DNA of 64,000 bases from Geosiphon pyriformis uo1 (taxonomy: Eukaryota > Fungi > Glomeromycota), in the NCBI GenBank assembly GCA_016748015.1, contig JAAOMT010000760.1, forward strand, positions 820,216 to 884,215, read 5' to 3'. This document shows, in pieces, positions 14,941-60,433 of the stretch. The position numbers and the translations under genes were made by a program. The notes beneath the pieces are model-generated. The model ran no database searches, had not been told where the DNA came from, and was given only the letters and a program-made list of their open reading frames with translations. Within the stretch, counting starts at the first letter, position 1; every line of letters begins with the position of its first letter.

Positions 14941-15808
14941 TGTTACTCATAGAAATATAGGAAATATATTAGCATAATTATTAGCCAATCAGAAGTAAGC
15001 ATAGAAAAGGTGGAATTCCAGGATTTCTTTCAGGAATTGCAGGATTCCAAGAATTTCAGAATTCCTAACAAGAAATTGCAGGATTCCAGAATTGCAGGAT
15101 TCCTTTCAAAGGAATCGCAGAATTCCAGGAATTCCAGGATTCCTGTCGTAAAGAATCGAGGAATTGAGGAATCTCAATTATGTATATATAGCAGTAGTAT
15201 TAGAAACAGAAAAGACAGAATCAATACCATAGAATTTTTAGCCTAAAAACACAATCATCAGATAAATAATTATTCCATATCTCAACTCACTTTCCACTAT
15301 TAACACTTCATGTTGATAGTAATTGATACTTAACCACACTAAAACAATAGCTCTTGATCACGGCTATTGATGGAATACTAATCTGCAAATTGCCTTGGCC
15401 TATTTTTTTTTTTTCTTTATTTTTCTTTTATTTATTTTTCTTTATGTTATTTTGATTTGTTGTTGTATACTAATTGATTAAAAGGATTAAGCGCTGAGTT
15501 ATTGACATCAAGGATAGCCTGGTAAAAGACCCAGAAATAAGGGTAGAATTTTATATATTATCGGATAGCTTACCAGAAGGGCATGACTGCCAAACTAAAT
15601 CCAGCCACCACACTAAGAAAGAAATTGGAAAAACTCTTGGGAAAATACATCTACTATCAACACTATTGAATCTCTGTCTATTATACAAAGGACTCCATCA
15701 AAACCTTCAGATACAACATCTTCAGATCACTATCAACTGCTATTAACTTCGAGCACCAAGTTACAGGTTTGTTATTTAATTCAACAGCAGAAATAATCAT
15801 CTGTAACA
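14941..15808 (+). repeat. 5' LTR of copy 1
   Basis: TGTTAC...GTAACA; CCAAT at 14985, GGA(A)TTCC/GC array ~15012-15170, TATATATA at 15183. Confidence 0.97.
15012..15190 (+). promoter_or_regulatory. U3 tandem motif array plus TATA box (putative LTR enhancer/promoter)
   Basis: About three ~39-bp units of GGAATTGCAGGATTCCAGGAATTCCAGGATTCC between the CCAAT and TATA boxes. Confidence 0.6.
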
Positions 15809-15810
15809 TT

Positions 15811-15827
15811 TGGTGCTCCCTGTGAAG
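15811..15827 (+). other. Primer binding site of copy 1
   Basis: TGGTGCTCCCTGTGAAG, 2 nt after the LTR end; complementary to a tRNA ending GAGCACCA. Confidence 0.85.
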
Positions 15828-15870
15828 TATAATTCTACAGAGAACTAGCACTGACAATACCAAACCAAAA

Positions 15871-18800
15871 GTGGCAGAATCAGAAAATATAGGAGCAAAC
15901 TATTTAGGATTTGCAAAATCCTTATTTCAACACTATTGTCAATACTTGGGATTAAACCACAATCATATATCTACCAAATCAGCCTTCAATTTCTACGTCA
16001 ACAAAAAAATTTTTTCTTTATTAGGAACACCAGTGAATACTGAATCAGCAAGGGAAACTTTCTATAAGGAATTAATTCAAAACACCAACCTACCAACAAA
16101 CCATAATTTTGCATCCATCATCACTAAGATCAACAAAGAAATTGAACATCACACTCAACAAAAATATCCAATTACATATGCTAGTAAAGGCAAGGGAAAA
16201 TTACAAACACCAACAGTAATACCCAGAAAAATACAGCCATCTGCTTGGAAAAAAAACAGAGTTGAATCCCCAAGCAACCTATCCTACCACTATACACCTA
16301 GAAGTGCCATCAACATATTATCAACAGACACATTGACATCAACTGTGACATTAGCATTTGGACGATTCTCATTCCAAAGTAGACAAAGGAAAACAGAATT
16401 GTTAGGACCATACAGCGAGTACTTTGAGAGATTTAATTCGCAATCATCAACCCCATTAGAACTTTGATCACCACCGCCTCCACCAGATTTCGGAATCTCT
16501 GACCCGTGGGAAGCAGTGGAATCAGAAAAAGAGAAAGAAGAATCAGAGGATTAAGAATTCACTTACCAGCACCCGATCACTAAAAACCTGAAAGTTGAAA
16601 CCCCGAACCTTCAAACTCAGCAACAGTTGAAAAATCCAGAAATCGAAACTCCGAATATTCAAATGCCACCAAATCAAAGAAATCAAGGACCCAAATTAAT
16701 TAATCAGCAAAACATATCTCCAGTAATTGTCATCAATCAACCACCAATTAATCCCATAGCCGAACCCATACAGCAGCCACTTTAGCTACTACTCCAACAA
16801 CCAGGACAACAACAACTGCTTCAACAGCCACCACAACCACCTAACTTAGATCCAATGGCCTACGCACCAATCGCAAAACTCAACAACTTTACTGGCGAAG
16901 AGGATAACACTCAAATATGGCTGAATGATGTAGAAAAAGCCATTGCAGCCAACAGATGGAATGACACTTGAGCAATGCAAGCCATTCCCTACTTTCTCAA
17001 AGATACTGCCGATTTATGGTATCAGAGCCTGGTTAATAAACCACAAGATTTCAATGCCTTTAAAGCAGAATTTCTAAGATACTTTAGCAATAATAACAGC
17101 ATCAATCGCCTAGTTAATGCATTCACCATCATAAAACAAGAAGAAACTGAAGCAGTTACCACTTATCTGGGATGCTTCCATCAAAACCTACGCCAAATTC
17201 AAGCAATTAACACCAATTATTTCACAGCACCACAGATACTCAATCAGTTTATCCATGTCTTGCACAGCAGCATCTTGCAACATGTATGGCTATTGCATCC
17301 AAGTACTCTTTAAGATGCAGTTACATGCGCCAGAGATTTTGAATCTGCCGAGTCAAAGGCTAACCACGCCCAAGCTGTTAATCTAGTAATGAACAGATCA
17401 TCTGAATTGGATTCCAAATTAGAGAAGTTCAGTAAATCAATTAATAAGAGATTGGAAGGATACTTAGCTAACAATCATGCCATTTATCAGCCTCTACAAT
17501 GACGCAATAATCAAGGAAACTCTAATCGAGCCCAAAATCAACCACGCCCATCTTCATCAACCAATCAACAGTGGCAACAGAAAATGCGTATCTGCCACTA
17601 TTGTGGTAAACAAGAACATATCCAAATTGACTGTTGCCAGCATCTAAATAATCAACAATCGGGAAATCAATATCGAAACTCTGATTGCCGGTTCCAAACT
17701 CTGAATCATTATCCAAATCAGAGTCAAGACCAATATCGAAATAATTACCTGTCCATGATGCAGCAACCAATCTATCAACCGCCAGTATATCAACCTCCAA
17801 TTCATCAGCCGCAGCCATAAGTAATATATCAACCGCAGCCACAAATTATCTATCAACCCCAACCAATTCAAACACCAACCCAGAACCAAGCTCAAATAAC
17901 ATCAGGCAGCCCTCAATCCAGAGTTACTCAAAACTAGAGATCAGCAATGGTTGTTCACCAACTGATCTCCAGTTTACTAAACTCACCATCAGGATCATGC
18001 ACCTGGAATTTGGATACCAGTCATATCCAAAACCCAAATTCTCAACATTATTTAAGTCTCCTAGTTACCCCAGAAAATGCCACTTTTAACAACACAGAAT
18101 CCAATCAGCATGTATCTACCAACACTATTCCACCGGCAACCATCTCTAGTGACGAATCCCTAGCAGCCATCTTTCCTTTCGAACTCAAAAAAAACACAAC
18201 AATACCATTATTCAGTAGAGCTGCTCTCGAAGAGAAACCCATAACAGCAATGTACATGGATGCCAGAGTTGATAATCACCCCATCAAACTCATCCTAGAT
18301 AGTGGATCAACTGGCAGCATAATTACTAGACAACTCATGGATTAATTAGGTCACCGAGTTGATCAAGCTGCCAGCACCAGAATCATCACAGCCGATGGAG
18401 CGACCAAAACTCCAATCGGTGAAATCGACGATTTCTCTTTTGAAATTAATGGCATCATGACTCCTATTAAAGTTCTAGTAATGGAAGCCACTCAATACCA
18501 AGCTCTCGTTGGTAATGACTGGCTATCCAAAGCCAACGCAACATTAGACTAGAACACTCAGGAACTCCAGCTAATGTATCAGGGCCAACACATATGTGTT
18601 CCGGCCACATGTGGCCACTTCAAAATTCCTCCAAGAGAAAAACTATTGATCAAGCTGGAGGAGGAGAAAAAAAAGCCTACCTGGGAAGCCTACCAAGTAT
18701 TGTGGGCTGACGAAGAGCACAATGAGCTGCCGCCAATACTCTTCTGGGATGACAACAACAAAGAAAAAGAGAAACAAAAAGAAGAACTTACCTGGGAAAC

Positions 18801-21800
18801 CAATGACCTGACATGGACCAACAATGACGAGAGCAAACTGACTTCAAGTTGGGAATGGGAAGAAGACAAAGAAAATAAAAGGAAGGAAAAAGAAAAAGAA
18901 ACTACTCAAACCACCACCACTTATAACACTTACACTACACCACAATAATTTACCTATCGTCAATCCAAGCTTATATGCATCGATTGTGGCAAGAAATTGT
19001 TGTCAATGGGCGCATGCTGTGGAGACGATGAGGAATATTCAATGGCAACTAGGTTCTATTGCTGCCCATGCGTCCTTGAATGCTTTGGAAAACCAAAACA
19101 AGTAGGGAAATGGGACAATCAGTCATGCTTAGCTTGTGGAGAAACTTTCTTGGATGAAGAAATGTGGCATAACATTCCTGGACATGGAGGAACGTGCGAC
19201 ATATCATGTCAATACACGATTCTAATAAGTGACTGGGTAAGGAAAGGAACCCCAATAAAAGCAGCCTGGAGAAGAGCCGTACAGTGACTGGACAGTTGTC
19301 CACATGATGATGACAAAATTTGGTGAATGGCACTTGCAAAAATCAAAGAGGCGACACCAGAAGAGATAAAAATGATCAAAGACAACCCCCTTAAACCTTT
19401 AGAGCTTGACTGGGATGCAGAACCCATCATAAACCTTCTGGATCCGGAACAATTCCATGAACACTATCAAGAATTAGCACCCACAAGAGAAGAACAAAAA
19501 CAACAGTTAGAGCAGTTGAACGCTCGACTATGTCAACACTGCCTAATTCCTTGTGACTTCCAGTATTGTGATAAGTGTGACCTCATTTACAATCCACTAC
19601 CACACATGATCTACATGATCCCAGAAAAGGAAGAACCAATCAGCAGCTGCACATCAGAATCAGAATTGCCAATCAATCGCGATTCAAACTCCAACAATAA
19701 TGATGACAACAACAGTTCAAGCTCCATTCAAAATGGCAATGACAATGACAATGATTTCAACTCAGATACAAACTCCAATTTAAATTATGTACAATACATT
19801 GCACTACCAGATCTTTCCAAGAAACAAGAGTTGAAATGGTATAGTGACAATGGAGAAGGTATTATGCCAGAATGTATGCATGATACTGATGCAGAGTTTG
19901 ATTTGAGATATCCAGAAAAAAATGCCATCAAATTGGAACCACATTCATGCACCTGCATTGATCTGAAAATAGCACTAGAAATTCTGGCAACAATCATGGT
20001 TCAATTAGCATCTAGGAGTAGTTTAGTGAAAAGAGGGATTAATATAAGAAGAGGAATAATTGATGCGGGATATGTAGGAAATATCATCACTATGCTACAA
20101 AATGACTCAGAAAAAGCCTATGTAATAGAGCCCAATAAAAAAATAGCACAGACAATATTCCTGCTTCTGGTTAGAATAGCTCAGTTAGTATCAATGGGAA
20201 AAAGGGAGGAATTAGAAATAACGGCGAGAGAAATACAAGGATTCGGATCCACAGGTAGAATAAATATACCAGTTAACATGGCAGAGGAAAAAATTGTTGG
20301 CCAAGGAGAAATTATCTCAACTGGTCAAGCTATTTCTATTCCACTATATAGCCAGTACATGTTAGCAATAGAAAGGAAGGAAAAAGAGCAAGAACAGATG
20401 TTTGAAGCGGAAGCAACCCTTTGTAAATTGGGAGAGATTGGGTTGATCAATCTCTACATACCAGCCAAAAGCTATAGCAGCATAAAAATTCCCATCTACA
20501 ACAACACTGGCAATGTTATCAACATACCAAAAGGAACCACCATCGGATATTTAACCACAGAAATAGAAAACCAACTGCCAAACCCCATTCCAAACTTTCC
20601 ACAACTTTGTAGATATGTTGACATCACCTCACAAACAATCTATGAATGAGACGAATGTTATTTGCTCCAACCAGAACAATTAGAACAAATGAACATGGGA
20701 AACTTAGATCCACTCCAATATATACAGCTCAAGATGTTACTCAACAATTTCAATGACATCTTTGCCAGCGAAAATAAGTTTGGCTGAACTGACATCATCC
20801 AGCATCAGATCAAGACTGGAGATGCAATGCCAATCAAACAAAGAGCATACAGAGTGCCGCCAGCCAGCCACAAAATTATTCGTCAAGAGATAAACAGAAT
20901 GCTTGACAACGGGCTAATTCAACTATCAATGAGTCTATGGTTGTCACCAGTGGTACTTGTCTGTAAGAAAAATGGAAAAATCTGGTTTTGTGTAGATTAC
21001 AGAAAACTCAATGGTGTAATTCGTGAAGACAGTTATCCAACTCCACAAATACAGGAATTATTCAATGCTTTTGGTGGGAACAAATGGTTCTCCACATTAG
21101 ATTTGGATAGTGGTTACTGGCAAGTAGCCATGAATTCAACTGACAAAAAGAAGACGGCATTTACTACTAGAGAAGGGAATTTTGAATTTGAAGTAATGCC
21201 ATTCGGCTTAACCAATGCCCCAGTGACTTTCCAATGGCTAATGGAAATTGTTTATACAGGCTTATTGTGGAAATCAGTAGTTATATACTTGGATGACACC
21301 AATGTATTCTCGAAGACGTTTGATAATCATTTCATCATCTTCAACAGTGTTCGAAAAACTAAGAAGAGCAGGACTAAAGCTAAATATGACAAAGTGCTTC
21401 TTTGGCAAGACAGAACTCAAATTTTTGGGACACATAATCAGCAAAAACGGCATCAAAACGGATCCAGAGAAAATAGAGATAGTAAAGAACTTTCCAGTAC
21501 CAACCAATATAACAGAACTGAAATCATTCTTGGGATTTGCCAGCTACTATTGTCGTTTTATCAAGAACTTTTCCAAGATAGCACAGCCACTCAATCAACT
21601 ACAAAACAAAAATGCAAAATATGAATGGACAGAAAGTTAACAAGAAGCTTTTGATATTCTGAGAAAAAAGCTCATCCAAGCTTCAGTGCTGATCTATCCA
21701 GATTACAGCAAACCATTCATCATCACTACTGATGCATTCGGCCAAGCATTGGGAGCAGTATTATCTCAGAGAGAACCGGATGGCAGAGAACATCCAGTAG

Positions 21801-22087
21801 CATATGCCAGCAGAGGTTTAACACCAGCCAAAAAGAACTATGGAACACTGGAACAAGAATACTTAGTAATATACTGAGCTGTCATAAAATAGAAAGAATA
21901 CTTGAGCCAGAAGTTTGAAGTATACACAAATCACAAGGGATTGACATCACTCCAAAAACAAAAATTTAGAGATGGAAGACAGTCAAGATGGAAAATGGCA
22001 CTTGCACCATACAATTATACTATATATTACAAAAAGAGAAAAGACAACAGAAATGCTGATGGTTTATCACAAATAAGACAAATCTAA
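15871..22087 (+). pseudogene. gag-pol: ORF1 of copy 1: N-terminal domain, Gag, zinc knuckle, aspartic protease, Cys-rich domain, dUTPase, pseudo-dUTPase, RT, RNase H
   Basis: ORF fragments starting at 15871, 16975, 17584, 17947, 18574, 18997, 19327 and 20827 share one frame. Motifs CHYCGKQEHIQIDC, LILDSGS, DAEFDL/SRSS/IDAGYVG/GFGSTG, MPFGLTNAP, YLDD, TDAFGQALGAVL, ADGLSQ. In-frame stops and a frameshift near 21335. Confidence 0.93.
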
Positions 22088-22150
22088 GAACATTTCAACC
22101 CAAAAATATAATAAAACCAGAACAATACCAATGGAAAAATACAACAAAAG

Positions 22151-23802
22151 ATGAACATACAAAAATATCAACAATTACAACATTATCTAAATACTCAACA
22201 GTTCAAGGAGAATTTATCTCATACGGAACGAAGGAGTATCAAACAACAATCAAAATATTTTATCACTCACCAAAATATACTTTATCAGAAAAATAGAAGA
22301 GATCCAGATCAACCAACCAGAGTAATTACGGAGCCAGAAAAAGAGACAATATTATTCAACATGCACTCAAATCCAACAGCAGGACATTTTCACAAAAAAG
22401 CAACCATGGAAAGAACTAAAAAAAGATATTATTGGCCATCAATGTACCCAGACATCATTCAATATGTTCAAAATTGTGATGCTTGTCAGTGAAGAGGAGG
22501 AACAAGACCCAGTAAACCATTAAGACTAATCAAAGTGAGACAACCATTTGACCGTATGGGAATTGATTTAGTCGGACCATTAACAATTACCAGCAAAGGA
22601 AACAGATACATAGCAGTAGCTGTAAACTATCTCACTAAATGGCCAGAGGCAAAAGCAATTCAAAGAGCGGATGCAGAATCTGTTGCCAAATTTGTTCATC
22701 AGGAGTTGATTTGTTGACATAGATGTCCAAAAGAATTATTATCAGACCAAGGAACTCATTTTGTGAACAGAACATTAACTGAATTGAGCCAAAGATTCGG
22801 AATCAAAAGACCATTATCATCACCATACCATCCACAAACCAATGAATTAGTAGAAAGATTCAACAGAACATTGTGTAAAGCAATAGCCAAGCTCAGCCAA
22901 GAAAACCAAAACAATTGGAATTTGTTTATACCATCAGTACTATTTGCTTATCGGACAATGAAACAAGATACTACACAAGCAACACCATTTGAATTAGTAT
23001 ACGGGAGAATAGCAACGTTACTAATAAAGAGAGAGAAATTAACACATATCCAGCTGAACCAATAACAGAGGAAAATTTTCAAGAAACATTGCTAAGAAGA
23101 ACATATGACTTAATAGAAACATTGGAAAACAAACGAAGAAAAGCAGCTGATAATATTCAAAAGTCACAAGAAACACAGAAAAAAAGACACAATAGTCAAC
23201 TACCAGACAAACCAGTTGAATTCAAGATCGGAGACAAAGTATTACTACATCATACCAAAGTGAAAAAACAATGGAGTGGAAAATTTGACCCCAAATGGGA
23301 TGGACCATTTCACATAAAAGAAATTCTAGAAAATGAAGCTTACAAATTAAGATTGGATAACAAAATTTTAACCAAAGCAGCACATGGAGATTGACTGAAA
23401 CCATATCACAACANNNNNNNNNNNNNNNNNNNNCAAGAAACACAGAAAAAAAGACACAATAGTCAACTACCAGACAAACCAGTTGAATTCAAGATCGGAG
23501 ACAAAGTATTACTACATCATACCAAAGTGAAAAAACAATGGAGTGGAAAATTTGACCCCAAATGGGATGGACCATTTCACATAAAAGAAATTCTAGAAAA
23601 TGAAGCTTACAAATTAAGATTGGATAACAAAATTTTAACCAAAGCAGCACATGGAGATTGACTGAAACCATATCACAACATTACACTACCATCTACCAGT
23701 AATATTCCACAATTAGGAGTACAGAGAATACTAGTCCAACCAGATAAGATTCCACGAGATTTGGAACCAATCATTATTATCAACAACAACACATTAAATT
23801 GA
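22151..23802 (+). pseudogene. ORF2 of copy 1: integrase (HHCC, DDE core, GPF motif), no chromodomain
   Basis: HSNPTAGH...CDAC, GIDLVGPL, SDQGTHF, HPQTNELVERFN, WDGPFHI. Includes a gap and a duplicated 247-bp segment. Confidence 0.9.
23167..23680. repeat. 247-bp exact duplication flanking a 20-N gap (assembly artefact)
   Basis: 23167-23413 is repeated at 23434-23680 directly after the N run; copy 2 lacks this duplication. Confidence 0.9.
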
Positions 23803-23826
23803 TCTATTAAAAGAATATATAAAGAC

Positions 23827-24475
23827 ATGGTAGACATGACAGGAAATATCAGAAAAATGGAAATTACAGACAACATTTACTCACTAGCACAACAACTCTT
23901 TCAATTAATCCAACACCAGAAAATGGAGATAACAAACTATTTGATATCAAGATACTAAAAAGACATTGCAACCCAGAACACAGAAGAAAACTGAAAATAC
24001 AGTGGACAAAATCATTGTGAAAGTAAAATTAGCAATAAAAGAATCGACAAAAGAGTCACTATATCAAGAGTTGACTAAAGAAACTTGGAATTAGTAGATA
24101 CAACAATTCCCACGAAACTATTGTTATTTTTACTTGGGACAACATGTAAATATTCAGAATCTATATACAGATAAAACAAAACAATTATTCGACAAAAAAA
24201 TACTACAACAATTAGAACATTTTGTGGAAAAGAACAACTTATCCACACAAGCCCAAGCTATATACCGAATACACACAGCATTTCAAGATAAACCAGAAAT
24301 ATTACTCAACAGAGCAATGGATATGGTTACCAGTAATCAATTGGGGAAAATCACCAATGCTCAATTTGAAAAATTACAGACCCAAATAACACAAGTAATT
24401 CTCAAAAACGAAATCTAGGAAATACTTCAAGAAGGGGAATTACATGAATTAGATTTTGACAGAGCTCAATATTAA
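23827..24475 (+). pseudogene. ORF3 of copy 1: unknown ~215-aa helical protein in the env-like position
   Basis: MVDMTGNIRKMEITDNIYSLAQQLFQLI...YCYFYLGQH...AQAIYRIHTAF...LGKITNAQFEKL...DFDRAQY*. Collinear with the copy 2 ORF; one frameshift; stop overlaps the PPT. Confidence 0.75.
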
Positions 24476-24486
24476 AAAGGAGGGAA
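24474..24486 (+). other. Polypurine tract of copy 1
   Basis: AAAAAGGAGGGAA, 3 nt before the 3' LTR. Confidence 0.9.
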
Positions 24487-24489
24487 TAA

Positions 24490-25357
24490 TGTTACTCATA
24501 GAAATATAGGAAATATATTAGCATAATTATTAGCCAATCAGAAGTAAGTATAAGAAAGATGGAATTCCAGGATTCCTCTCAGGAATTGCAGGATTCCAGG
24601 AATTTTAGGATTCCCAACAAAGAATTGCAGAATTCCAGAATTCCAGAATTCCTTTCAAAGGAATCGCAGGATTTCAGAAATTCTAGGATTCCTGTCGTAA
24701 AGAATCAAGAAATTGAGGAATCTCAATTATGTATATATAGCAGTAGTGTTAGAAACAGAAAAGACAGAATTGATACTACAAAATCTTTAGCCTAGAAACA
24801 CAATCATCAAATAAATAATTATTCCATATCTCAATCCACTTTCCATTATCAACACTTCATGTTGATAGTAATTGATACTTAATTACGCTGGAACAATAGC
24901 TCTTGATCACGGCTATTGACGGGATACTAATCTGCAAATTGTCTTGGCCAATTTCTTTTTTTTTTTTATTTTTTTTTTATTTCTTTTTCTTTATGTTATT
25001 TTGATTTGTTGTTGTATACTAATTAATTAAAAAGATTAAGCGCTGAGTTATTGACGTCAAGGATAGCCTAGTAAAAGACCCAGAAATAAGGGTAGAATTT
25101 TATATATTATCGAATAGCTTACCAGAAGGGCACAACTACTAGACTAAATCCGGCCACCATGCTGAGAAAAAAATTGGGAAAACTCTTGGGAAAATACATC
25201 TACTATCAACACTATTGAATTTCTGTCCATTATACAAAGGATTCCATCAAAACCTTCAGATACAACACCTTCAGATCACTATCAACTGCTATTAGCTTCA
25301 AGCACCAAGTTACGGGTTTGTTATTTAATTCAACAACAGAAATAATCATCTGTAACA
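24490..25357 (+). repeat. 3' LTR of copy 1
   Basis: 868 bp, homologous to 14941-15808, followed by TSD ATGT. Confidence 0.97.
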
Positions 25358-27666: not shown

Positions 27667-27680
27667 TTATTCCCTCCTTT

Positions 27681-28349: not shown

Positions 28350-28373
28350 GTTTTTATATACTCTTTTTATTGT

Positions 28374-29752: not shown

Positions 29753-29781
29753 CTTTTGTTATATTTTTGGGTTGAAATGTT

Positions 29782-35700: not shown

Positions 35701-35992
35701 GTTGTTGTGTGTATCTTTCAATGGTTTGATTGATTTTCCTGATGATTGGTGCAAAACTGTAGTTTTTTGATAAGCTAATATGTTGAAATAATTCTATATA
35801 AAAATTTTCTCTTGCAGATTCAATGTTAATAATTCCTTTTAAGCAGTCTGTAATTTTATTGTTAATGTAGAAGTTAAAGATAGATTCTGCTGGGAAGTGG
35901 TTATTGTTTAGTCCTAATTGTTGGCTGTACTATTAGAACAAGGATTTAATAAATCCTAAATGATTTGCTCCTATGTTTTCTAATTCTGCCAC
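29782..35992 (-). pseudogene. gag-pol: ORF1 of copy 2: Gag, PR, Cys-rich, dUTPase, pseudo-dUTPase, RT, RH
   Basis: DAGFDLRY, LASRSSL, GGLIDIGY, MPFGLINAP, YLDN; starts AAA-GTG-GCA at 35992 and ends IRQI* at 29782. Confidence 0.9.
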
Positions 35993-36035
35993 TTTTGGAT
36001 GGTTGTTGTTGGTGTTGGTTCTCTGTAAAATTATA

Positions 36036-36052: not shown

Positions 36053-36054
36053 AA

Positions 36055-37329: not shown

Positions 37330-37553
<224 letters not shown>

Positions 37554-50559: not shown

Positions 50560-51539
50560 TATTACCAGAAAGTTTTGGTCTCTTTTTTTGAATGTTTGTT
50601 AATGTTGCTTTGCTGTTAATTCATGTTTTCAGGAAGTAGTTGGATCTCCAGTAACTGAATTTATCTTCAAATTATCTTCTATAATTTGAACTTGCTGGGC
50701 TTATGAGTAGAATGGCCAATTCTGTGCCAATTACTTTGTATAGTTACATTGTAGTAAACATCAACTCTTTCCCAGGAATTGCTTGTCTAAAAGTTCACTA
50801 AAATATGTAGTTACTTTGCTGTGAAAGTCAACTTTTCTACAGGAATCTTGTCTGTAGGCTACTCTAATGATTGTAATAAGAAAAGAAAAGAAAAATAAAA
50901 GAAATGTAAAAGAAATAGAATTTTGTCAAGGGAAACGTTTTCAATCCAGGCCTGGAATCACTAACAGTTTATTGAAATTGGTAGCTAATCAATTTCAAAA
51001 CGTTAGTTGAGTTTTGAGAATTTTCCAAATGCAATAATTAAAGAGTTTTTGGTTTTTCAAATTATTTTATTTTTATTCTTTTTGTGTATGTAAGAGTGGT
51101 TCTAAGTAATAAATCTAAAGTAAGATATATTTTCTCAAAGAGAGAAGCTCTTCTTTTATACAACTTGTCATAATACTATTTTATGAACTTGAATTTTGCT
51201 ATTTTCTACAATTTCACTGAACTAAAGATATATTTCAGCGAATTACAAGTTATTTCTGTGAACTATTAAATATTTTGGTAAGCTATTAATTATTTCGGCA
51301 AATTTTTACAAATTTTGGCGAACTTTTGAATGTTACATAGTTCGGGGTATTGCATGATTGATCATTGCAATTAGGTTACATTTGTGTTGTGTACAAATTG
51401 GGTTATTAATTAAATGACAATTTCAAACATTTTGCTAATGTAATAAGTGATAATTTGAAATGATAATATATGCTAATTAATAATAGGAATTATAAGATAA
51501 TTTTATGCTAAATAATATTTCTAATTTTGTCTAGTAACA
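50560..51539 (-). repeat. 3' LTR of family B
   Basis: 980 bp, homologous to 59455-60433. Confidence 0.95.
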
Positions 51540-51550
51540 TAACCTCCTCC

Positions 51551-52227
51551 TCAAGACTGAGCTCCATCGAAGTCCAAGTACTGTCTGTCATTTACAAATA
51601 ATAATCCAAAATTATTGAAGAAATTTGGTTTGAAAATTGTTGAAATTTCAGTTCTGTGAGCTTTCCAATGTGTTGAATCTTTAAAGATTGAAAAATTGGG
51701 TTTTGTAGTACGTTTTTACAGGTGTGGAATAGGTCATAAAGTCTAAGAGCAGCTCTGAGCCTGTAGCGACTGTTTGTTGATCCAGCTGTTGTCTTGAATT
51801 TGTTGTGGAGTTGTTTCTGAATAGCTTTTTTTGTAAGATTTGTTGTTGTAAGTTCCAATTTCCATTTGTAGAGTGTTTTTTCAATGTGAAAATATCTATA
51901 AATTGGAGGATATTCAGTGTTTTCTTCATTGAGATACAGTTAAAGTCTTTGTTGAATTGTAGCATTTAGTGAAATACTAATCAGAGTGAGCATTAGGTTT
52001 TCTTTTAAAGCAAGCTTTAAAAGTTCTGGCAGGTAAATTCCAGTATAACTTTTTGTGTTCTTCTTATATGAGTGATATTTTTGTGAATTTGGGGCTAAAT
52101 TTATAACTACTTCTGTTTAGATATAATTAATGTGGTTTCCAGTAACAGTAATAGATAATTCAGGTATTGTTTTTAAAGCTAATATTAGTTTTTGGAATAA
52201 TTGTTGAATGTTTTGAGGAATAGTCAT
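51551..52227 (-). pseudogene. ORF3 of family B (~220 aa, unknown)
   Basis: MTIPQNIQQLFQKLI...YRYFHIEK...AALRLYDLF...IGKLTELKFQQF, then after a frameshift YLDFDGAQS* ending at the PPT. Confidence 0.72.
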
Positions 52228-52343
52228 TATAAGCAATTTGAAATAAAAGAAAATTATTTTTGGTGTATGGGTTTTTATGTTATTTTTGTTTTGTTTTTGT
52301 GAAATTGTTTCTAAATTATAAGAGAATAACTTGTAAAATTAAA

Positions 52344-53728
52344 TTAAGTGTTTAGGTTGGAAGGTTGTTCAATGACAACTATTGGTTCTAAGTTTTGGAG
52401 AATATCTTCGGAATTGACTAAAGAAGAATGTGTACCAATTTGTAAAATTAATGGTTCAGGATTGTTTCTGGAATAATAGTGTTTCAAACTATCTCCATGT
52501 GCAACTTTTGCTAGGATTTTGTCATCAAGTTTTAGCTTGTATAATCTGTTGCCTAGGACTTCATGGATAAAGAATGGTCCATCCCATTTATTTTCAAATT
52601 TTTCACTCCATTGTTTTTCAGCTTTAGTTCTGTGTAAGAAAACTTTGTTTCCGATTTTAAATTCATTGGTGACTGGAAGGAATTTGTCATCATGCCATTC
52701 TTTTTGTTGAGCTTGGGAGTGTTCAATATGGGTGACTGTTATTCGTCATTTTCCTTCCAATGTGCTAAGCAGAGTATAGACTCTTTGCTGAAGCATTTCT
52801 TGGAAATTGTTTTCATTGATTGGTTGTGCTGGATATGTTTCCACTGTGAAACTAATTGGTAATATTGCTGTTCTTCTGTAAGTTAAATCAAATGGTGTGT
52901 GTTTTGTAGTATCTTGTTTTAGTGTTCTGTATGTTAGCAACACTGATGGAATAAAGATATTCCACTTTTGCTCAAAATTGGTTGAGACTTTGGCTAATGA
53001 CTCACACAATGTTCTGTTAAAACGTTCCACAAATCCATTTGTTTGTAGATGGTAGAGCAAAGACAGAGGTCTTTTGACATTAAATTGTTCACAAATTTTT
53101 TGTATCAGGTTGTTCACAAAGTCTGTCACCTGATCGGATAAAAGTTCAATTGGACATTCATGTCTACAAATAATGTCTTCGTAGATAAAATTTGTTACTG
53201 ATTTAGCATCTGCTCGTTGAATGGCTCTGGCTTTGGGCCATTTAGTAAGATAGTCTACAGCTATTGCGATATAATGGTTTTCTTGAGTGGTGATAGATAG
53301 TAATCCAACTAAATCAATACCAACTCAGTCAAAGAGTTGTCCAACTTTAATTGGATTTAATGGTTCAGTAGGGCGTGTTCCTTTTCTTCTTTGACAACTA
53401 TCATAAGATTCAACATATTCGTGAATGTCTTTTCTCATTTGAGGCCAAAAGTAGTATTCTAGTGTTCTTTGGGTGGTGCTATTTTTTCCGAAGTGTGCTG
53501 ATAAAAAATCTGAGTGCATGTTGTATAATATGGTCTCTTTTTTCTGTTCTTGTATTAATCTGAATGGTTTGTCTGGGTTTTTGAAATTTCGATGATAAAT
53601 AATGTTGTTGTGTAGAAAATATTGTTTGGCTTGTTGTTGTAGTCAATGTTTTTCATCTGGAGACCAATCTGTTGGATTGTTAATGTTTCCAAATATTGTT
53701 TGAGATTGTTGTAGTTTTCTGAATTCAT
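52344..53728 (-). pseudogene. ORF2 of family B: integrase
   Basis: MNSENYNNLKQYL, HSDFLSAH...YDSC, GIDLVG, SDQ, QTNGFVERFN, WDGPFFI. Confidence 0.9.
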
Positions 53729-53779
53729 TGTTTGTTGGCTCTTTTGGTTGGTTAAGTTGAGTGTTGTTTTTTGTGTTTT

Positions 53780-56700
53780 CTAATCTTGTCTCATTCTGGA
53801 GAGACAGTCAACATTGGTGTAAAGTTTTCCTGGTTTGTGATGTACTATGTATCGATAGTTTGCTAGAAATCCTGTCTATTGGGTTTGTTTTGCATTCAGC
53901 TGAGTATTTTTGTTTTAAAGCCATTTAAGTCCAATATTATCAGTGATAATATCGAATTCTTTGGGTCTGAGATAAAAGTTAAAGTGATGTAGGGCCCAGA
54001 TTACTGCTGCGGTTTCTAATTCTGTTGCAGGATAGTTCTTTTTGGCTGGCTTTAATGTTCTACTAACATAAGCAATTACTCGCTCATTTCCATTGTTATC
54101 TAACTGTGATAGGATGGCACCAAAGACAGTATAAGAAGCGTCAGTTGCTAACCGGAATCGGTTGCTGAAATCTGAGTAGGCGAGAATTGGAGCTATTGGG
54201 AGTTTTTCTTTAAGTATTTCGAAGGCATTTTGATTTTATTCTGTCCATTTGTATTCGACTTTTTTAGTAGTAAGCTGTTTGAGAGATTTTGCAATTTCTG
54301 AAAATCCTTTGATGAATTTTCAGTAATAGGATGCTAATCCAATAAATTCTCTTAATTCTGTGGCATTTCGTGGAGTCTTGAAGTTCTTGACAGTACTGAT
54401 TTTTCTGGGGTTTGATTTAATTTCATCTTTGCTAACAATGTGACCGAGAAAAGCTAAACTTGTTTTTCCAAAGTAGTATTTTTCAATGTTCAGTTTCAAT
54501 CTTGCTTTCCATAATTGTTGAAAAACTTCTCACAGGTAAATTAAATGTAACTCGAAAGATGGTGAATAAACATCAGTGTTATTAAGATAAACTACTACTG
54601 ATTTCCAAAGGAGGCCTTTGTAAACAACATCTATGAGTCTTTGAAATATTGCTGGTGCATTGCATAATCTAAAAGGCATTACATTGAACTCGTAATTTTC
54701 TCCTTGAGTGGTGAATGCTGTTTTGGGGTGGTCTTTGGGATGCATAGCAACTTACCAGTATCCACTCTCTAAATCTAATGTTAAAAAGTATTTGGACTTT
54801 CCAAGGGCATCCAACATGTTATCAATTCAGGAAAGAGAGTAGGCATCTCTAATGGTGACACTGTTGAGTTGTCGATAATCAACACAAAATCGTATCTTTC
54901 CATTTTTTTTTTAACTAGGACCACAGGTGAGGCCCATGGGCTTATTGATGGTTGAATAAGCCCATTGTTAAGCATCCATTGTACTTCTTCTCAGATAAAT
55001 TGGTGACTTTTTAGAGCAACTTGGTAGGCTTGTTGTCGCCTTGGTTTGGCATCTCCTGTATAGATTTGGTGTTAAACCAAATCAGTTCTTCCTAAGTTAT
55101 TGTTGTTTTCAGCAAAGATGTTGGCAAACTTTGCAATTAGCTCTGTGAGCTAGTTTTGTTGTTGTGGTTCAAGTTGTTCTATGTTGATTTGAAATACTTT
55201 TTCCATGACAACATGGTAGTTTTTAGAGCTAGGGTTTGGATTGATTTTTGGTAGTGAATGTTCAATGATTTCTGGAAAATTGAGAACTGTCTGGAGTAGT
55301 TTTTGTTGAAAGATGTTACTGTAAATGACTCCAATTTCTAAGTTATTTAATAGAACTATGAGGTAATTGTTGGGATTGTAAAAAGTAACTTGGACTTTCT
55401 TTGTTCTTTCTGGAATATAAATGTTTGGAACCAAAATGTTATGTTTCAAGCAGACTTGTTCATTGGACTCAAAAATTTGTTGTGTGGTTGTTGGCTTTGG
55501 ACAGATGTAGATTTCCAGATGTTTTTCAAAGGGTGAGATGGTAATTGGTTGTGGAAGTCTGAGAATCTGGTGGAATTCGTTTTGTGTGTTAAGAGCTATA
55601 TTAACTGAAACTGTGAATCATCCAGTTGAACTAAAACTTTGGGTTCCTCTATCACTTTTTCCTAATTGTTTTCTTTGACTAACTAGTTGCAAACCCAAAA
55701 TGTTGATTAGGGATAGGTAAATAGCTTGGGCAATTTTTTTAGCATGGTTGATCTTGAATGGTTTGTCAGTTTCATTTTGGAGCATTACTGTAATGTCTTC
55801 CGTATATCCAACATCGATTATTCCTCCTCTAACATTGATTTTTTTGCTTGCCAGAGAGGACCGGGAGACAATTTGAACCATTGCTCCTGGTGGGATTTCG
55901 AGTGCAATTTTTAGGTTGATTTTTGTGAGAGATTTGGGTTTGAGAACAAGAGGATTCTTGTTTAGATATCTTAGGTCATATCCAGCATCAATTTTATGTG
56001 CTTTTTCAGGTTTTATTCCTTGTCCATTGTTGTTAAAGTATTTGAGTTGTAAGGCAGGCTGACTTTTGATAAAATAGATGGGTGTTGTTTTAATTTCTTC
56101 TGTTGCTTCAGGTTCTCCAAATTCAATTTTGTTTTCATCATTTTCACTGGGCAGGGGAATGCTAAGAGCATAGCATTCAGGGCACCATTGTTCATTACAA
56201 GACATTATGCATTCTTCACACAATTTAACGTTCATTTGCTCTAGCCATTAAACTTGAGCTTTTTTGGTCAGGTAAGTGTGACTGGCAATTTGGTAATATA
56301 TTTCTACTTCATCTTCATAGTTGTATCCAGCAATTTCAAAGGTGTATGCAATGTATTCTGATTCTTTCATTTGACAAACATTTTTTTGAGTGGCTCCATT
56401 GATTAGAGCCATTGCTAGATCAAAAATCATTTCAGCATCATGAGGGTAATGATACAGTTTGTTGAGGGCGCTGTTGTAGACAGTGTCAAAAAAAGTTCCT
56501 CTTTTGACTTTTTCTGAAATTGATAAAGCATATTGGCAGGTTTAATTGCAGACTCTTCCTCTCATTGCTACATCAATCCAATTGCATTCTTCTGGTAGCA
56601 TATCTTCACAAGTCAAACAAGAGGTGTTGTCCCATTTTTTACTTCTTTTTATTAGATGACCCTATCGTTTTCTGTGGCACGTCTTGCAATAATAACAAGT

Positions 56701-59409
56701 ATGATTTTCATATTCTTCTTCAGGTGAAATGCAGGCTCTCATTGATGAGAGTTTCTTGTGGCAATCTTTGCATTTGAGTGGAATGTAAGAGTGTTGTTTC
56801 CGTGGCTCTGGTTTTGAATAGGGGACATTCCATCCAAGAGTTATTGGTTCTTTTGTTTCACAAGGATTGTTTGTTGAAAAATACTGTTGTTTAGTTTCAT
56901 CAGCCCAATTGAAGATTGATCCAAGTGCCATGAAAGTTTTGATTGTTGGTTTTTTTTCTTCTGGTTCGAATTCAAAAGCCGGGGCCTTTTCGGAGCATTT
57001 ATTGAATGTACCACAAGTGACAGATACTCGGGCATGTTGTTCTTGGTAGAAAATTTGTAGTTCTTGGGTTTCCCAGTCTAATTTTGCATTGGCTTTTTGG
57101 AGCCAATCATTTCCGACAAGGGTTTGATATTGGAGAACATCCATTACAAGAACTTTGATTGGAATGGTGATTCCATTAAGAGTGAATAAAAAATTGTCGA
57201 TTTCTTCTACTGGAGTCTTTTTCATGTCATTAGCAGTGACAATAATTGTCTGAGCTGGTCAGTTAACGTTTCTCTTTAGCTGCTGCATCAATTGATATGT
57301 GATGATACTTCTAGTGAATCCACTGTCTAAGATCAAACGAATTGGCTTTTTTTCTACTTCAGCTTCTGTGTACATTATAGTGATGGCTTTTTGCTCATTA
57401 GCCGCTGCATTGCTAAGCAAGAACGGTGATTCATTTGCTTCAAAATTGAAGGGAAATATATCTGAAAGATTGGCGTTTTCAGCAATTCTGGCTGGTAGGA
57501 TTGTGGTAGGAATATACAAAGGGTTTTGTTGTTGTGCTGTAGCTCTACCTTCTGAGGGTGCAGTATGGTGAAAATCCTGTTTTTCTGGCATTGTTAAATA
57601 ACTGGGTTGAGTGTGGTAGTGGTTGAGTTTTGGTTGAGTGGAATTTCGGGGAACTAATTAGTTGTTCAAACTGATTTTATTGTTGTTTACATGGTATCAG
57701 TTTTGTGGTGTAAATTGATTTTGTGTAATCAGTCTTTGAGCAGGTACTTGATAATGTTGTGTAGGTGGTTGTTGGTATTGCTGTTGGATTGGCTGTGGGG
57801 TGGACTGATAATAGTTACTTTGGTATTGGGGTTTTGGTGGATAGTAAGCTGGTGGTGATAGTTGATAATAAGATTGCTGTGGTGGAGAGTAATGTTGATT
57901 ACTCCTATTTTGTTGGTCTCATTGTAGCTTTCTGCAATCTCTTTTCCAGTGGCCAGAGATTCTACAGTAATGGCAATTCTGAGGCTGGTTATTGGAAAGT
58001 GGTGCAAAGTTATTTTGATTTCGTCTTTGGGGTGGTTAATATCTTTGGGGTTGTTGTTGTTGTTGGTTGGTAAAATAGTTTTCGACCTTTTTTGTAAGTT
58101 GGTCAATTTTTTCCTCAGCTGCTGAGCTGGTTTCTCCAATTGCCAAATTTACAAGTTTTGTACAATTGGCTTCTTCCATAGCCATTTCATATCTTTTTGC
58201 ATGTTGGATGGCAGAGTTCAAATCTTTTGGGGCATGTGGGCGAATCTTTTTAATTAGTTTATCTTTTAGACCAGCAATAAATTGATCCAAGATTTGAGCA
58301 TCAGAATAATAATTGTTTGTTTCGAGTTGGCGAATTTGTCTGAGAAGTTTGTTGAATTTCCTAATATAAGTCATAACAGATTTGGAGGGTTCTTATTTGA
58401 TATTGCGAAAACGATTTCGAAGGGTGATAGAGGTATTATTGTTGGTGAACTGTTCAAAGAAGGCTGCTTTGAAAGTGTCTCAATCATTGAATTGAGCAGC
58501 CAAGTTTTTAAACCATTCTCCTGCTGTTCTTTTGAGAAAGTAGGAAATTGTTCTTAACATTCTGGTAGCATTCCATCTATTTACATCTCCAGCTTTAGTA
58601 ACTTAATTGAGCCATTCTTGGGGACTGGTCTCAATATTTTCTCCATTGAATTTGGGAATTTTTGCAATATAAGCTGTCATTTCATCTTCTTCACTTTCAC
58701 TGTGGATTGATTCTTCTTTTTCTTCGGATAATTCAGAATTGTTTTCGTCATGAATGGCTGTCTTAGAATGTTCACTTCGATTTTCTATTAAAAAGTCAAG
58801 AAGATTAGTGCTAGTTTGAAGGTGTTTTGTTGTTGAATAAGGCTTTTGGGTGACCAAAAATTTTCTATTCTTGAAAACCGAATAAGTAGTGAGCTTGGTA
58901 TTTGTGGTTGAGCAAATGAAATTAGAAATGGTGTAATAGAAAGTGGTAATTTGACACTGGTTCCTTGTTCAGGTGTTTGCAAGTGTTTGGCAATTGTTTT
59001 TGGTAGTATTGGAGTATTTAAAGTAGTTCTTGAGTATTGCTTTGATTTTTGTTTGTCTTTGTTGCTTGTTTCTGTTTCTGATTCAAAGTCAATAGAGTAT
59101 TGAGACTGTACTGGGTATTTTTCTTTACAATATTCAATAATGTTAAAATTAAGTTCTTAAAAATAGGTAGCAAGAATGTCACTGTTAAGGTCTTCAGTTC
59201 CCAACTGTGAATAATATACTAAATTGTTGTAAAGATTGCTTCTAACTTCTGAGATGTTGTAATTTCCAAAAAGATAATTGTTAATGCGGTTTTCAATGTA
59301 TTGATTTCCCGATAACTTCAATTCCATCTAGAATGTTGAATCTTTGCTTGCAGTGGGTGTAAATCGATTAGTAATACTCTAGAGTTGTTGCATCTGGTAT
59401 GGTTGCCAC
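53780..59409 (-). pseudogene. gag-pol: ORF1 of family B: Gag, knuckle, PR, Cys-rich, dUTPase, pseudo-dUTPase, RT, RH
   Basis: MTAYIAKIPKFNGE, ILDQFIAGL, CHYCRISGHWKRDC, LILDSG, DAGYDL/SRSSLA/GGIIDVGY, MPFRLCNAP, YLNN, ATDAS, VDCLSRMRQD*. Confidence 0.92.
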
Positions 59410-59438
59410 TTTGAATTTGTTGTTGCTGTGTTATTTTT

Positions 59439-59452
59439 ATGGAAGAGCACCA
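59439..59452 (-). other. Primer binding site of family B
   Basis: TGGTGCTCTTCCAT, 2 nt from the LTR; same TGGTGCTC core as family A. Confidence 0.8.
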
Positions 59453-59454
59453 AA

Positions 59455-60433
59455 TGTTATCAGAGGTTTTTGGTCTCTTTTTTTAAATGTTGTTGATGCC
59501 TGTTTGTTGTGAATTCACGTTTTCTGGATGTGGTTGAACTTTCAATAACTGAATTTATCTTCAAATTATCTTCTATAATTTGAACTTGCTGGGCTTATAA
59601 GTAGAATGGCCAATTCCATGCCAGTTATTTTGTATAGTTACATTGTAGTAAACATCAACTCTTTCCCAGGAATTGCTCGTCTAAAAGCTTACTAAAATGT
59701 GTAGTTACTTTGCTGTGAAAGTCAACTCTTCTACAGGAATCTCGTCTGTAGGCTACCTTACTGATTGTAATAAGAAAAAAAAAGAAAAATAAAAGAAATG
59801 TAAAAGAAATAGAATTTTGTCAAGGGAGATGTTTTCAATCCAGGCCTGGAGTCACTAATAGTTTATTGAAATTCGTAGCTAATCAATTTCAAAACGTTAG
59901 TTGAGTTTTGAGAATTTTCCAAGTGCAATAATTAAAGAGTTTTTGGTTTTTCGAATTATTTTATTTTTATTCTTTTTGTGTATATAGGAGTGGTTCTAAG
60001 TAATAAATCTAAAGTAAGATACATTTTCTCAAAGAGAGAAGCTCTTCTTTTATACAACTTGTCATAACACTATTCTATAAACTTGAACTTTGCTATTTTC
60101 TACAATTTCGCTGAACTAAAGATACATTTTGGCAAACTACAAGTTATTTCTGCGAACTTTTAGATATTTTGGTGAGCTATCAATTATTTTGGCAAATTTC
60201 TACAAATTTTGGCAAACTTTTGAATGTTATATAGTTCGGAGTATTACATAATTGATTATTGCAATTAGGTTATATTTGTGTTGTATACAAATTGGGTTAT
60301 TAATTAAATGATAATTTTGAACATTTTGCTAATCTAATAAGTGATAATTTGAAATGATAATATATGCTAATTAATGATAGGAATTATAAGATAATTTCAT
60401 GCTAAATAATATCTCTAATTTTGTCTAGTAACA
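59455..60433 (-). repeat. 5' LTR of family B
   Basis: 979 bp, TG...CA termini; TATAAAAG on the minus strand near 60047-60054. Confidence 0.95.
60105..60220 (-). promoter_or_regulatory. Phased U3 motif array of family B (6 copies, consensus ATTTCGGCGAACT, 20-bp period)
   Basis: Units at 60105, 60126, 60146, 60166, 60186, 60206; consensus rebuilt by comparing both LTRs. Confidence 0.65.

Follow-up and report, generated by a model that had tools for sequence, protein, structure and literature searches.

The DNA analysed here, a window of 64,000 nucleotides from Geosiphon, contains Gypsy retrotransposon copies in which Gag, protease (PR), RT and RNase H are fused in one ORF1 frame, and integrase (IN) and a third protein (ORF3) occupy separate ORFs. 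Of 68 protein matches, 67 pointed to Geosiphon pyriformis as the host. Overall, we read the copies as dead members of a Ty3/Gypsy group from fungi of the arbuscular-mycorrhizal type, with IN and the third protein as separate genes, an ORF1 that would be translated with leaky scanning, and an IN likely produced by reinitiation; for this reading taken whole, belief and doubt are evenly matched.

Results

Three copies from two families

The three-ORF Gypsy copies of the preliminary description were confirmed in part. Copy A (14941..25357, plus strand) was complete from LTR to LTR with the TSD ATGT/ATGT, copy B (26811..36807, minus strand) was full-length and more decayed than A, and copy C (50560..60433, minus strand) was full-length with no matching TSD. 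DNA comparison upheld the claimed two families with dissimilar LTRs. A and B formed family 1 (70-77% internal nucleotide identity, 72-74% in the LTRs), and copy C (family 2) matched them at the DNA level only in RT/IN (64-68%), its LTR matching theirs nowhere. The 5' LTR of copy A (14941..15808) differed from its 3' LTR (24490-25357; 24476..25357 with the PPT) at 71 positions in 868 nt, 68 of them transitions. The 3' LTRs of B and C lay at 27666-26811 and 51539-50560 on the minus strand, and a solo LTR of family 1 at 13942..14710 on the plus strand (flanks ACAT/AAAT). The TSD was apparently 4 bp: exact in A, with one mismatch each in B and the solo LTR, and without a match in C. LTR ends (TG...CA), PBS, PPT and TSD were those of Ty3/Gypsy elements, the 3' LTR of copy C ending in TA. 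Further copies were sampled via annotated proteins and contig pieces.

The PBS core said to be common to all copies was TGGTGCTC, found 2 nt behind every 5' LTR (A, 15811-15818, plus; B, 36052, and C, 59452, minus). It had five matches in the window versus 0.45 expected, two of the five being the U5 complement. A U5-PBS hairpin in copy A (15751..15819, plus) would hide the PBS; its z value was -5.2 in A and B and not significant in C. The claim of shared U3 palindrome arrays stood for the arrays, present in both families, and failed for the palindrome. The near-palindromic GGAATTCC-type unit occurred only in the A/B family, with eight 19-nt units in A (15011-15177, plus) and a TATA-like run near 15184 in the same LTR; copy C had a different direct repeat at 20-nt spacing.

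Domains of ORF1

Pfam matches followed the claimed order in all three copies: gag, aspartic protease, dUTPase, RT, RNase H, IN zinc finger and IN core. ORF1 of copy A (15871..22087, plus), interrupted by early stops and, near 21345, by a frameshift, comprised the N-domain, Gag, CCHC, PR, a multi-CxxC region, dUTPase, a beta-rich domain, RT and RNase H. The CCHC knuckle and multi-CxxC region, both claimed earlier, were seen in the translations, the latter with no Pfam family above cut-off. Five conserved motifs, which we take to define a trimeric dUTPase, were read by eye in 14 displayed rows of a 52-row alignment, and the dUTPase Pfam match was above cut-off in all three copies. The pseudo-dUTPase proposed behind it found no backing (hhalign probability 0.4%, no Pfam match), and the fold model of this post-dUTPase domain (pLDDT 35) was uninformative as to a dUTPase-like fold.

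The dUTPase was missing from the ORF1 pieces of nine relatives scanned, and a Geosiphon dUTPase profile found none in 173 ORFs of related loci. We propose a later capture within the Geosiphon branch; a dUTPase between PR and RT has already been reported in fungal Gypsy elements (PMC2864245). Geosiphon profiles of the N-domain, CxxC, dUTPase and post-dUTPase regions gave nothing convincing among relatives, and the Cys-rich extension behind RNase H in relatives, tested in one, had no Pfam family.

The start of ORF1

The GTG said to open ORF1 was present as a shared codon in A (15871..15873, plus), B (35992, minus) and C (59409, minus), within AAAGTGGCA, which occurred in all three copies in frame with the N-domain. 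In A it stands in an AAA-GTG-G context as a putative weak first start; a fixed in-frame stop (15823-15825) lies 16 codons before it. Among 1,954 contig pieces, no alternative letter reached 3% at positions 15866-15880 and the upstream stop varied solely to other stops; Val stood at the GTG position in 10/10 annotated copies. Sequence context, instead of selection, may be the cause of this low variation. The N-domain was homologous between families from the GTG on (28, 23 and 16 bits, where shuffles gave 8 or fewer). The frame of copy C is broken by a frameshift about 110 nt past the GTG; annotated copies from its family confirmed the GTG frame, and an ATG start for the copy C N-domain was rejected as an artefact of that frameshift.

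Relatives had an AUG 23-111 nt behind the PBS, with none earlier, and it was weak: -3 was T (U) in all 17 distinct true-PBS contexts, two spurious PBS rows left out. In the 17 relatives, 470-840 nt separated the first and second in-frame AUGs, and this stretch held one AUG in any frame versus 65.2 expected from synonymous shuffles. The second AUG, at Gag, was mostly strong (-3 purine in 15/17, +4 G in 14/17). A weak first AUG, an AUG-poor stretch and a strong second AUG together argue for leaky scanning and two Gag-Pol isoforms, and the Geosiphon GTG is probably the local form of this clade-wide weak first start. Between the GTG and the Gag AUG (A, 16855, plus; B, 35011, and C, 58680, minus), the window copies held 2, 6 and 3 AUGs versus 11.4, 10.4 and 8.1 expected in A, B and C respectively, with normal density downstream; the depletion in B was marginal (10 of 200 shuffles equally low). 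Counting against leaky scanning, the Gag AUG has a -3 pyrimidine in A and B. GUG initiation of Gag was not found described in a literature search.

A stand-alone integrase

In A, B and C, RNase H was followed by a stop and, after gaps of 63, 29 and 51 nt respectively, by an ATG opening IN; the stop behind IN was at an aligned place. In copy A, a G-poor spacer (22088..22150, plus) led to ORF2 (22151..23802, plus; ATG with -3 A), which had a frameshift near 23050 and included, at 23414-23433, an assembly gap accompanied by a 247-bp duplicate. On the minus strand, the RNase H stop, IN ATG and IN stop were at 29784, 29752 and 28376 in B and at 53782, 53728 and 52346 in C. The separate integrase ORF between stops was thus found as described, and it recurred in relatives. 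The soil-metagenome loci had been retrieved by patterns taken from split elements and show some redundancy. RNase H and IN were split in 42 of the 44 that hold both the RNase H end and the IN start, the two fused loci being distant IMG/VR contigs. The IN frame relative to RNase H was 0, +1 and +2 in 13, 11 and 18 split loci, and gaps were at or below 0 in 9, 1-160 nt in 27 (usually 60-115 nt) and above 160 nt in 6. ATG was the aligned first IN codon in all 66 loci whose alignment reached the N-terminus, with a -3 purine in 61/61, the three window copies counted in. A single gag-pol-IN ORF lacking a conserved ORF3 was also looked for: the relatives were split, and ORF3 was conserved. Some contigs read IN-ORF3-LTR-ORF1; they are probably assemblies collapsed at the LTR, and circles or tandem arrays were set aside in favour of this explanation.

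Of 83 related loci, 43 had a covarying hairpin of about 40 nt that ended 0-30 nt short of the IN AUG; in one large, well-supported subclade its position was fixed. Two-sided changes were seen in 8 of its 11 pairs, and 98% of cells were paired. A three-way junction was replaced by this bulged hairpin, which RNAalifold preferred and which had more two-sided changes. With no family match in Rfam, it is a candidate new RNA element. The best score in the window was 12.8 bits versus 48-77 for clear matches, and 40/83 loci, some of them cut short, were without it. Since the hairpin is missing from the window and from these 40 loci, it cannot be a general mechanism.

A conserved third ORF

ORF3 came before or overlapped the PPT, as previously described. 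It spanned 23827..24475 (plus) in A, ending directly before the PPT, with its first ATG at 23827, a stronger one at 23857, a TATA-like word at 23816 and a frameshift near 23960. In B it lay at 28349-27681 (minus), and in C it ran from 52227 (minus) across the PPT and on into the 3' LTR, intact copies encoding 239 aa. Family 2 had many intact ORF3s of 239/235 aa, and the two families shared 23% identity (E 2e-6). ORF3 was found in 19 of the 34 relatives with room for it, and by the rule used in none of the other 15; a soil-only profile did not place the decayed ORF3 of copy B above shuffles. The family comprised 527 protein clusters at E<=0.001, without a Pfam family, and included Rhizophagus irregularis, Glomus cerebriforme, Gigaspora margarita and Cetraspora pellucida; one R. 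irregularis gene model joins ORF3 to a piece of IN.

An env-like ORF3 was rejected because it has no membrane span: of 147 family members only 3 had a 19-residue hydropathy above 1.6, the value for P0072 being 1.04, and no env family matched. Searches of Pfam and PDB gave no env, esterase or exonuclease match. The sole leads, both weak, were to the helical domain DUF1016_N (atlas, 0.85; Pfam, E 0.12 in 1/20). The atlas search at 0.9 returned no match for ORF3 or the N-domain, an ORF3 model (pLDDT 47) had no Foldseek match at E<=0.001 in viral and PDB libraries, and the ORF3 profile had one chance-level match among PDB sequences. Of 17 relatives, 9 (versus 2.95 expected) had a TATA-like word no more than 150 nt from the ORF3 ATG; it was near this ATG in A and B and missing in C and 8/17 relatives. 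Such a word can stem from Leu-Tyr-Lys codons.

Classification and spread

The order PR-RT-RH-IN was that of Ty3/Gypsy elements. RT-RH of relative L019, which shares 40-49% identity with pieces of the window copies, had Ty3 RT as its best solved-structure match (E 7e-90); RTs of caulimoviruses and retroviruses came lower in this ranking, which is one by similarity and not a tree. IN usually, though not as a strictly defining feature, lies within the Pol ORF of Ty3/Gypsy elements (PMC3248453); here it does not. No chromodomain, the mark of chromoviruses, was seen at the IN C-terminus; the one hint, a weak SH3_Tf2-1 match, stayed below cut-off. Trees of RT-RH and of IN (the latter built with FastTree), made up of unnamed loci, left the base open and had just one to three outgroups, L085 serving solely in that role, and a single origin of the split layout was therefore not established. 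Viral-contig scans gave no locus for two single queries and one and three distant loci for alignments. Matches in archaeal and bacterial MAGs probably reflect binning contamination.

These comparisons support the view that the three-ORF Gypsy elements are a lineage of their own, unusual in its translation and reaching far beyond Geosiphon. The earlier proposal, partly supported as a whole, gains from the same layout in soil relatives and from ORF3 elsewhere in Glomeromycota; its 'retrovirus-like accessory functions' did not hold as a lineage trait, the relatives being without dUTPase and ORF3 not env-like. The expression plan (separate IN and ORF3, weak first start) was not found described for Ty3/Gypsy elements in our literature searches.

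Discussion

The weak first codon (GUG in Geosiphon, AUG with -3 U in relatives) would yield a long form with the N-domain, and the remaining ribosomes would scan the AUG-poor stretch and start at the AUG before capsid; these two steps together we consider likely. Very probably, IN would be a protein of its own, made from its own strong-context AUG and not by readthrough or frameshift, and its entry into the particle would have to rely on binding to Gag, RT or the RNA. The chances seem evenly balanced that ribosomes get to its AUG by termination-reinitiation, crossing a short unstructured spacer, and that the hairpin, in one large subclade, would hold the ribosome or recruit IN. Precedents for reinitiation treated in PMC5972666 are LINE-1 (63-nt spacer), SART1 and victoriviruses; the viral stop-restart discussed there tolerates up to 29 nt, and most gaps (27/42 are 1-160 nt) exceed this, which argues against reinitiation. 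ORF3 might, more tentatively, be a soluble helical nucleic-acid-binding regulator (Tas/Rev/CERV-like) with an internal TATA promoter at the IN end. The fullest version, four proteins without a frameshift (two Gag-RT isoforms, a hairpin-aided trans-packaged IN and a trans-acting regulator with an internal promoter), is a doubtful proposal.

IN could instead be translated from a separate subgenomic RNA that arises by splicing or at an internal promoter, with the hairpin as a promoter, processing or packaging signal. Every IN AUG has a scanning-type strong context, gap length and frame vary freely, and TATA-like words hint at internal promoters in the group; foamy Pol is made from spliced RNA and packaged via an RNA signal (PMC7828637), and bdelloid ORF3s come from spliced messages (PMC5408684). 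However, the window spacers are rich in A and C, contain 3-9 T and lack a pyrimidine tract, inspection by eye of the 110 nt leading up to the IN AUG showed no conserved AG acceptor, and stop and start overlap or abut in 9/42 junctions, consistent with coupling; we judge this source of IN rather unlikely. Internal ribosome entry or shunting at the A-rich spacer or hairpin would make IN independent of ORF1 translation. It could draw on the fixed position of the covarying hairpin in its subclade and on the unstructured A/C-rich spacers elsewhere, and a weak ORF1 start would leave pure reinitiation scarce. Yet the hairpin has no Rfam match and is missing from the window, and its size is much below that of an IRES (to our knowledge, described IRES elements are far larger than about 40 nt), making internal entry a slim prospect.

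As to ORF1, translation may not begin at GUG: an AUG in the LTR could be spliced onto the N-domain, or the internal Gag AUG alone be used. Copy A has an acceptor-like CAG at 15838-15840, four ATGs in its leader and further near-cognate codons in frame directly upstream, and gene models splice past the upstream stop. Set against these, the first AUG of relatives is at the equivalent place, the N-domain is conserved as protein from the GTG onward, and the modelled intron takes out just 8 codons, so that another start appears improbable. That the stops reflect decay (C-to-T on Gln codons) or readthrough of a normal Gag-Pol-IN polyprotein would fit the 15 such stops in about 1,800 codons of copy A and the common frame of RNase H and IN in A and C. 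But largely intact soil relatives are split in all three frames, so the layout is not decay, and the IN ATG and its context are invariant; decay or readthrough is refuted as a general explanation and is exceedingly unlikely here.

The elements resemble yeast Ty3 in their TG...CA LTRs, tRNA-type PBS, PPT and PR-RT-RH-IN order, and differ in the separate AUG-started IN, the single frame from Gag to RNase H, two putative ORF1 starts, a conserved ORF3 and no chromodomain. They have a dUTPase between PR and RT in common with PosPlaTy3-5, Phanerochaete elements and Tuber Tmt1 (PMC2864245) and with bdelloid Juno, Vesta and TelKA, which also have an ORF3 (PMC5408684). The pertinent sections of these two papers describe no stand-alone IN, and the bdelloid ORF3s treated in the second are env, esterase or exonuclease, with no such match here. 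As in foamy viruses, an enzyme is apart from Gag and would be packaged unfused, with a putative internal promoter; in those viruses all of Pol is set apart and made by splicing, whereas these elements separate IN alone and have no env (PMC7828637). LINE-1/SART1 ORF2 and victorivirus and hypovirus stop-restart, as covered in PMC5972666, likewise place an enzyme ORF downstream of a stop, at a short distance or overlapping it; those are non-LTR elements or RNA viruses, whereas here the upstream ORF has 1,600-2,100 codons and spacers vary widely. CERV of Cer1, a Gypsy-element accessory protein reported to control genomic RNA (PMC10309623), offers ORF3 a functional analogy only.

LTR elements are given as 41.2% of the Geosiphon genome (PMC11952901). 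ORF3 and N-domain copies are annotated in Geosiphon as hypothetical host genes, and this would inflate orphan-gene counts in mycorrhizal fungi.

In MLV, a weak upstream in-frame CUG start passed by leaky scanning yields glycoGag, an N-terminally extended membrane form of Gag. Here too a weak upstream in-frame start would extend Gag, but the codon is GUG or a weak AUG, and what is extended is a Gag-to-RNase H fusion; the AUG-poor stretch offers a clean, mutable signature of two Gag isoforms. Retroelement integrase is normally particle-bound through the fusion of Pol to Gag. A large natural group with unfused IN makes IN dosing and packaging testable, and the split lets fungal initiation at a second long ORF be tested. 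If the four-protein reading is true, complex-retrovirus-style control would have arisen independently in an env-less fungal retrotransposon, and these elements would be an undescribed, very abundant Gypsy group of the Glomeromycota.

Copies of two families and their surroundings

Self-comparison of the window delimited three elements, each roughly 10 kb long and enclosed by LTRs: copy A (14941-25357, plus strand), copy B (36807-26811, minus strand) and copy C (60433-50560, minus strand), and a solo LTR (13942-14710). A and B belong to a single family (family 1), and C (family 2) resembled them at the DNA level only in reverse transcriptase (RT) and integrase (IN). With stops translated as X, Pfam domains for gag, protease, dUTPase, RT, RNase H and integrase were recovered from all three. 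All three copies are dead: LTR pairs differed by 8% in A and C and by 14% in B, almost exclusively through transitions, and ORF1 of A (Gag to RNase H) contained 15 premature stops. One DNA comparison matched 87,594 contig pieces to copy A, a figure that is not a copy count and that fits a very large family. The host was Geosiphon pyriformis in 67 of 68 matches to the dUTPase region, and PMC11952901 gives LTR elements as covering 41.2% of this genome.

A relic of about 10% GC at 3631-7014, with a 66% match to the B integrase region in the self-comparison, is a fourth, extremely decayed copy. The assembly gaps at 23414-23433 and 4769-4788 are scaffolding artefacts, since exactly duplicated sequence flanks each of them, 247 bp at the first and 2,085 bp at the second. 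Decayed ORFs at 47900-50560, with a weak RRM match and an endonuclease-like start (by eye), end at the 3' LTR of C without continuation on its far side; given these cut ORFs and that no target-site duplication was found around it, C may have arisen by recombination or may have been wrongly joined in the assembly. At 7035-13340, 400-bp inverted repeats (83%) enclose minus-strand remnants of kinase and DUF7869 sequence; this may be an ancient DNA transposon that carried cargo. A decayed ORF at 60900-62300 had no family in the Pfam scan.

Integrase is encoded by a separate ORF

In A, B and C, a stop after RNase H was followed by an IN ATG at 63, 29 and 51 nt respectively. Since decay stops were frequent in the window copies, relatives were fetched with an IN alignment, comprising the best 80 of 161 confirmed metagenome matches (44-58% identity), two loci from MAGs and three from viral contigs. 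Among these loci, which were partly redundant and chosen by patterns taken from split elements, 44 contained the end of RNase H together with the beginning of IN, and in 42 of these the two were split, so the relatives do not share a single gag-pol-IN ORF. The stand-alone integrase of the preliminary description held in all three copies. The two fused loci were distant contigs of the viral collection. The frame of IN relative to RNase H was distributed 13/11/18 across the split loci, and this freedom ruled out a common readthrough or frameshift. Of the gaps from the RNase H stop to IN, 9 were 0 or less, 27 measured 1-160 nt and 6 exceeded that range; the last group probably consists of broken copies. 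ATG was the aligned first IN codon in 66/66 loci whose alignment extended there, with a purine at -3 in 61/61. The relatives are genuine LTR elements: they end in TGTT...AACA and have a polypurine tract (PPT) and a primer binding site (PBS), and the window's TGGTGCTC PBS core recurred in one of them. The split integrase is therefore real and not a product of decay. One split-integrase relative (L073:74-2968) carried a NUDIX domain before protease; PMC12210691 connects subfamily K of NUDIX with domains of retrotransposons.

A probable GTG start of ORF1 and an AUG-poor stretch behind it

AAA-GTG-G opened the N-domain, which precedes Gag, in 3/3 window copies. No alternative letter reached 3% at 15866-15880 among the 1,954 contig pieces covering it, variants of the in-frame stop 16 codons before GTG were other stops only, Val occupied the GTG position in 10/10 annotated copies, and N-domain homology between the families began at this codon. 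The GTG reported previously at the head of the N-domain was borne out, and an ancestral ATG is unlikely because local decay changes G to A.

ORF1 of the relatives began at the equivalent position with AUG, with T at -3 in 17/17 distinct contexts (counted after exclusion of two spurious PBS matches). The second in-frame AUG lay 471-843 nt further, at or slightly upstream of the capsid domain; its -3 position was a purine in 15 of the 17 and its +4 position G in 14. Between the two, the 17 relatives held 1 AUG in any frame versus 65.2 expected. From GTG to the Gag AUG, counts were 2 versus 11.4 expected in A (0/200 shuffles as low), 6 versus 10.4 in B (10/200) and 3 versus 8.1 in C (5/200), and density downstream was ordinary. 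The window depletion is the relatives' pattern, blurred by decay. An N-domain with a His/CxxC zinc-binding-like motif occurred in L006, L014, L017, L021, L046, L061, L065, L070, L075 and L082, and another N-domain in seven other relatives; neither type matched that of Geosiphon.

ORF3 is a conserved gene

Many intact family 2 copies of ORF3 were found, of 239 or 235 aa and running through the PPT into the 3' LTR; the best 120 of 157 matches were all from Geosiphon. The two families' ORF3s aligned at 23% identity (E 2e-6), and an ORF followed IN in 19 of 34 relatives with enough room. A relatives-only profile scored three Geosiphon ORF3s at 19-21 bits versus at most 5.6 for shuffles and missed the decayed ORF3 of B, and a joint profile collected 527 protein clusters at E<=0.001. 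Species names stood on 8 of 20 clusters looked up: Geosiphon (3), Cetraspora pellucida (2), Rhizophagus irregularis, Glomus cerebriforme and Gigaspora margarita. A Rhizophagus irregularis gene model fused an IN piece with ORF3. ORF3 is a real conserved gene, as first proposed. It had no match in Pfam, PDB sequences or fold comparison, and a search for a membrane span found none. In 9 of 17 relatives a TATA-like word stood no more than 150 nt before ORF3, versus 2.95 expected (reached by 0/500 shuffles), an excess that codon use could partly explain; it was present in A and B and absent from C.

One or two ORF3-like domains each lay inside longer Gigaspora and Cetraspora gene models (P0327, P0454, P0363), possibly through host capture or other carriers. 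The DNA directly before the PPT (51540-51570, 24450-24489, 27670-27700) was similar across families in differing ORF3 frames, which suggests a cis-element.

RNA structures

In one subclade (99% local support), a motif of about 40 nt lay 0-30 nt upstream of the IN AUG. In a bulged-hairpin fold, 98% of its cells were paired and 8/11 pairs had changed on both sides, exceeding all shuffles and slid controls, which were lenient as the structure was derived from the tested sequences themselves. An invariant U-G pair favoured the sense RNA strand. Searched with a model built on 26 loci, 43 of 83 loci showed the motif, each once; the model found none in the window, where the RNase H-IN spacers are A/C-rich and G-poor, and Rfam gave no match in 12 loci scanned. 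An acidic, Cys/His-rich extension of 190-400 aa followed RNase H at the ORF1 end of L006, L025, L061 and other loci; the one extension scanned had no Pfam family. Hairpin and extension were both present in 17 loci, both absent in 17, and discordant in 4 and 4.

Family 1 U5 (15751-15819; 36105-36045, minus strand) carries the complement of the PBS and LTR end. A long U5-PBS hairpin burying the PBS was predicted in A and B (z -5.2) and was not significant in C; it may gate priming against translation.

Expression of the three ORFs

Judged from sequence, the AUG-poor stretch has the signature of leaky scanning, by which ORF1 would quite probably yield two isoforms; MLV glycoGag is an analogue of this two-start arrangement. 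The same AUG pattern puts IN out of reach by scanning alone. We infer that integrase is very probably made as a free protein; foamy viruses offer a model of how it could be packaged, as their unfused enzyme enters the particle via RNA signals (PMC7828637). Its AUG may be reached by termination-reinitiation, a route with roughly even prospects; LINE-1, SART1 and fungal RNA viruses offer precedents (PMC5972666), though the majority of the RNase H-IN gaps here exceed the viral ones. Translation of IN from a subgenomic RNA seems rather unlikely, and internal entry of ribosomes improbable. ORF3 might, tentatively, act as a nucleic-acid-binding regulator transcribed from an internal promoter.

Placement of the elements

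Other parts of the preliminary description fared differently. The pseudo-dUTPase placed after dUTPase found no support in profile comparison, Pfam or a fold model, and dUTPase was not a lineage trait, being absent from the relatives' ORFs that were searched and already known between protease and RT in fungi (PMC2864245). U3 repeat arrays did occur in both families, though not as one common palindrome: only family 1 has near-palindromic units, and C has a different, 20-nt-spaced direct repeat. The two Geosiphon families formed one group in each of two trees (local support 99% and 97%). With an open base and no named reference elements, these trees do not establish that the layout arose only once or assign the elements to a clade. 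Full-text literature searches, together with the available portions of PMC2864245, PMC3248453, PMC2774666, PMC11952901, PMC8647823, PMC9963178, PMC12210691, PMC10508981, PMC5911963, PMC5408684, PMC10309623 and bioRxiv 10.64898/2026.05.21.726589, turned up neither a Gypsy element described as encoding integrase in a separate ORF nor a GUG-started Gag; repeat libraries (PMC11952901, PMC2864245), Repbase, GyDB and the Geosiphon genome paper may hold such elements. Together, the elements belong to Ty3/Gypsy as a variant with a separate integrase ORF.
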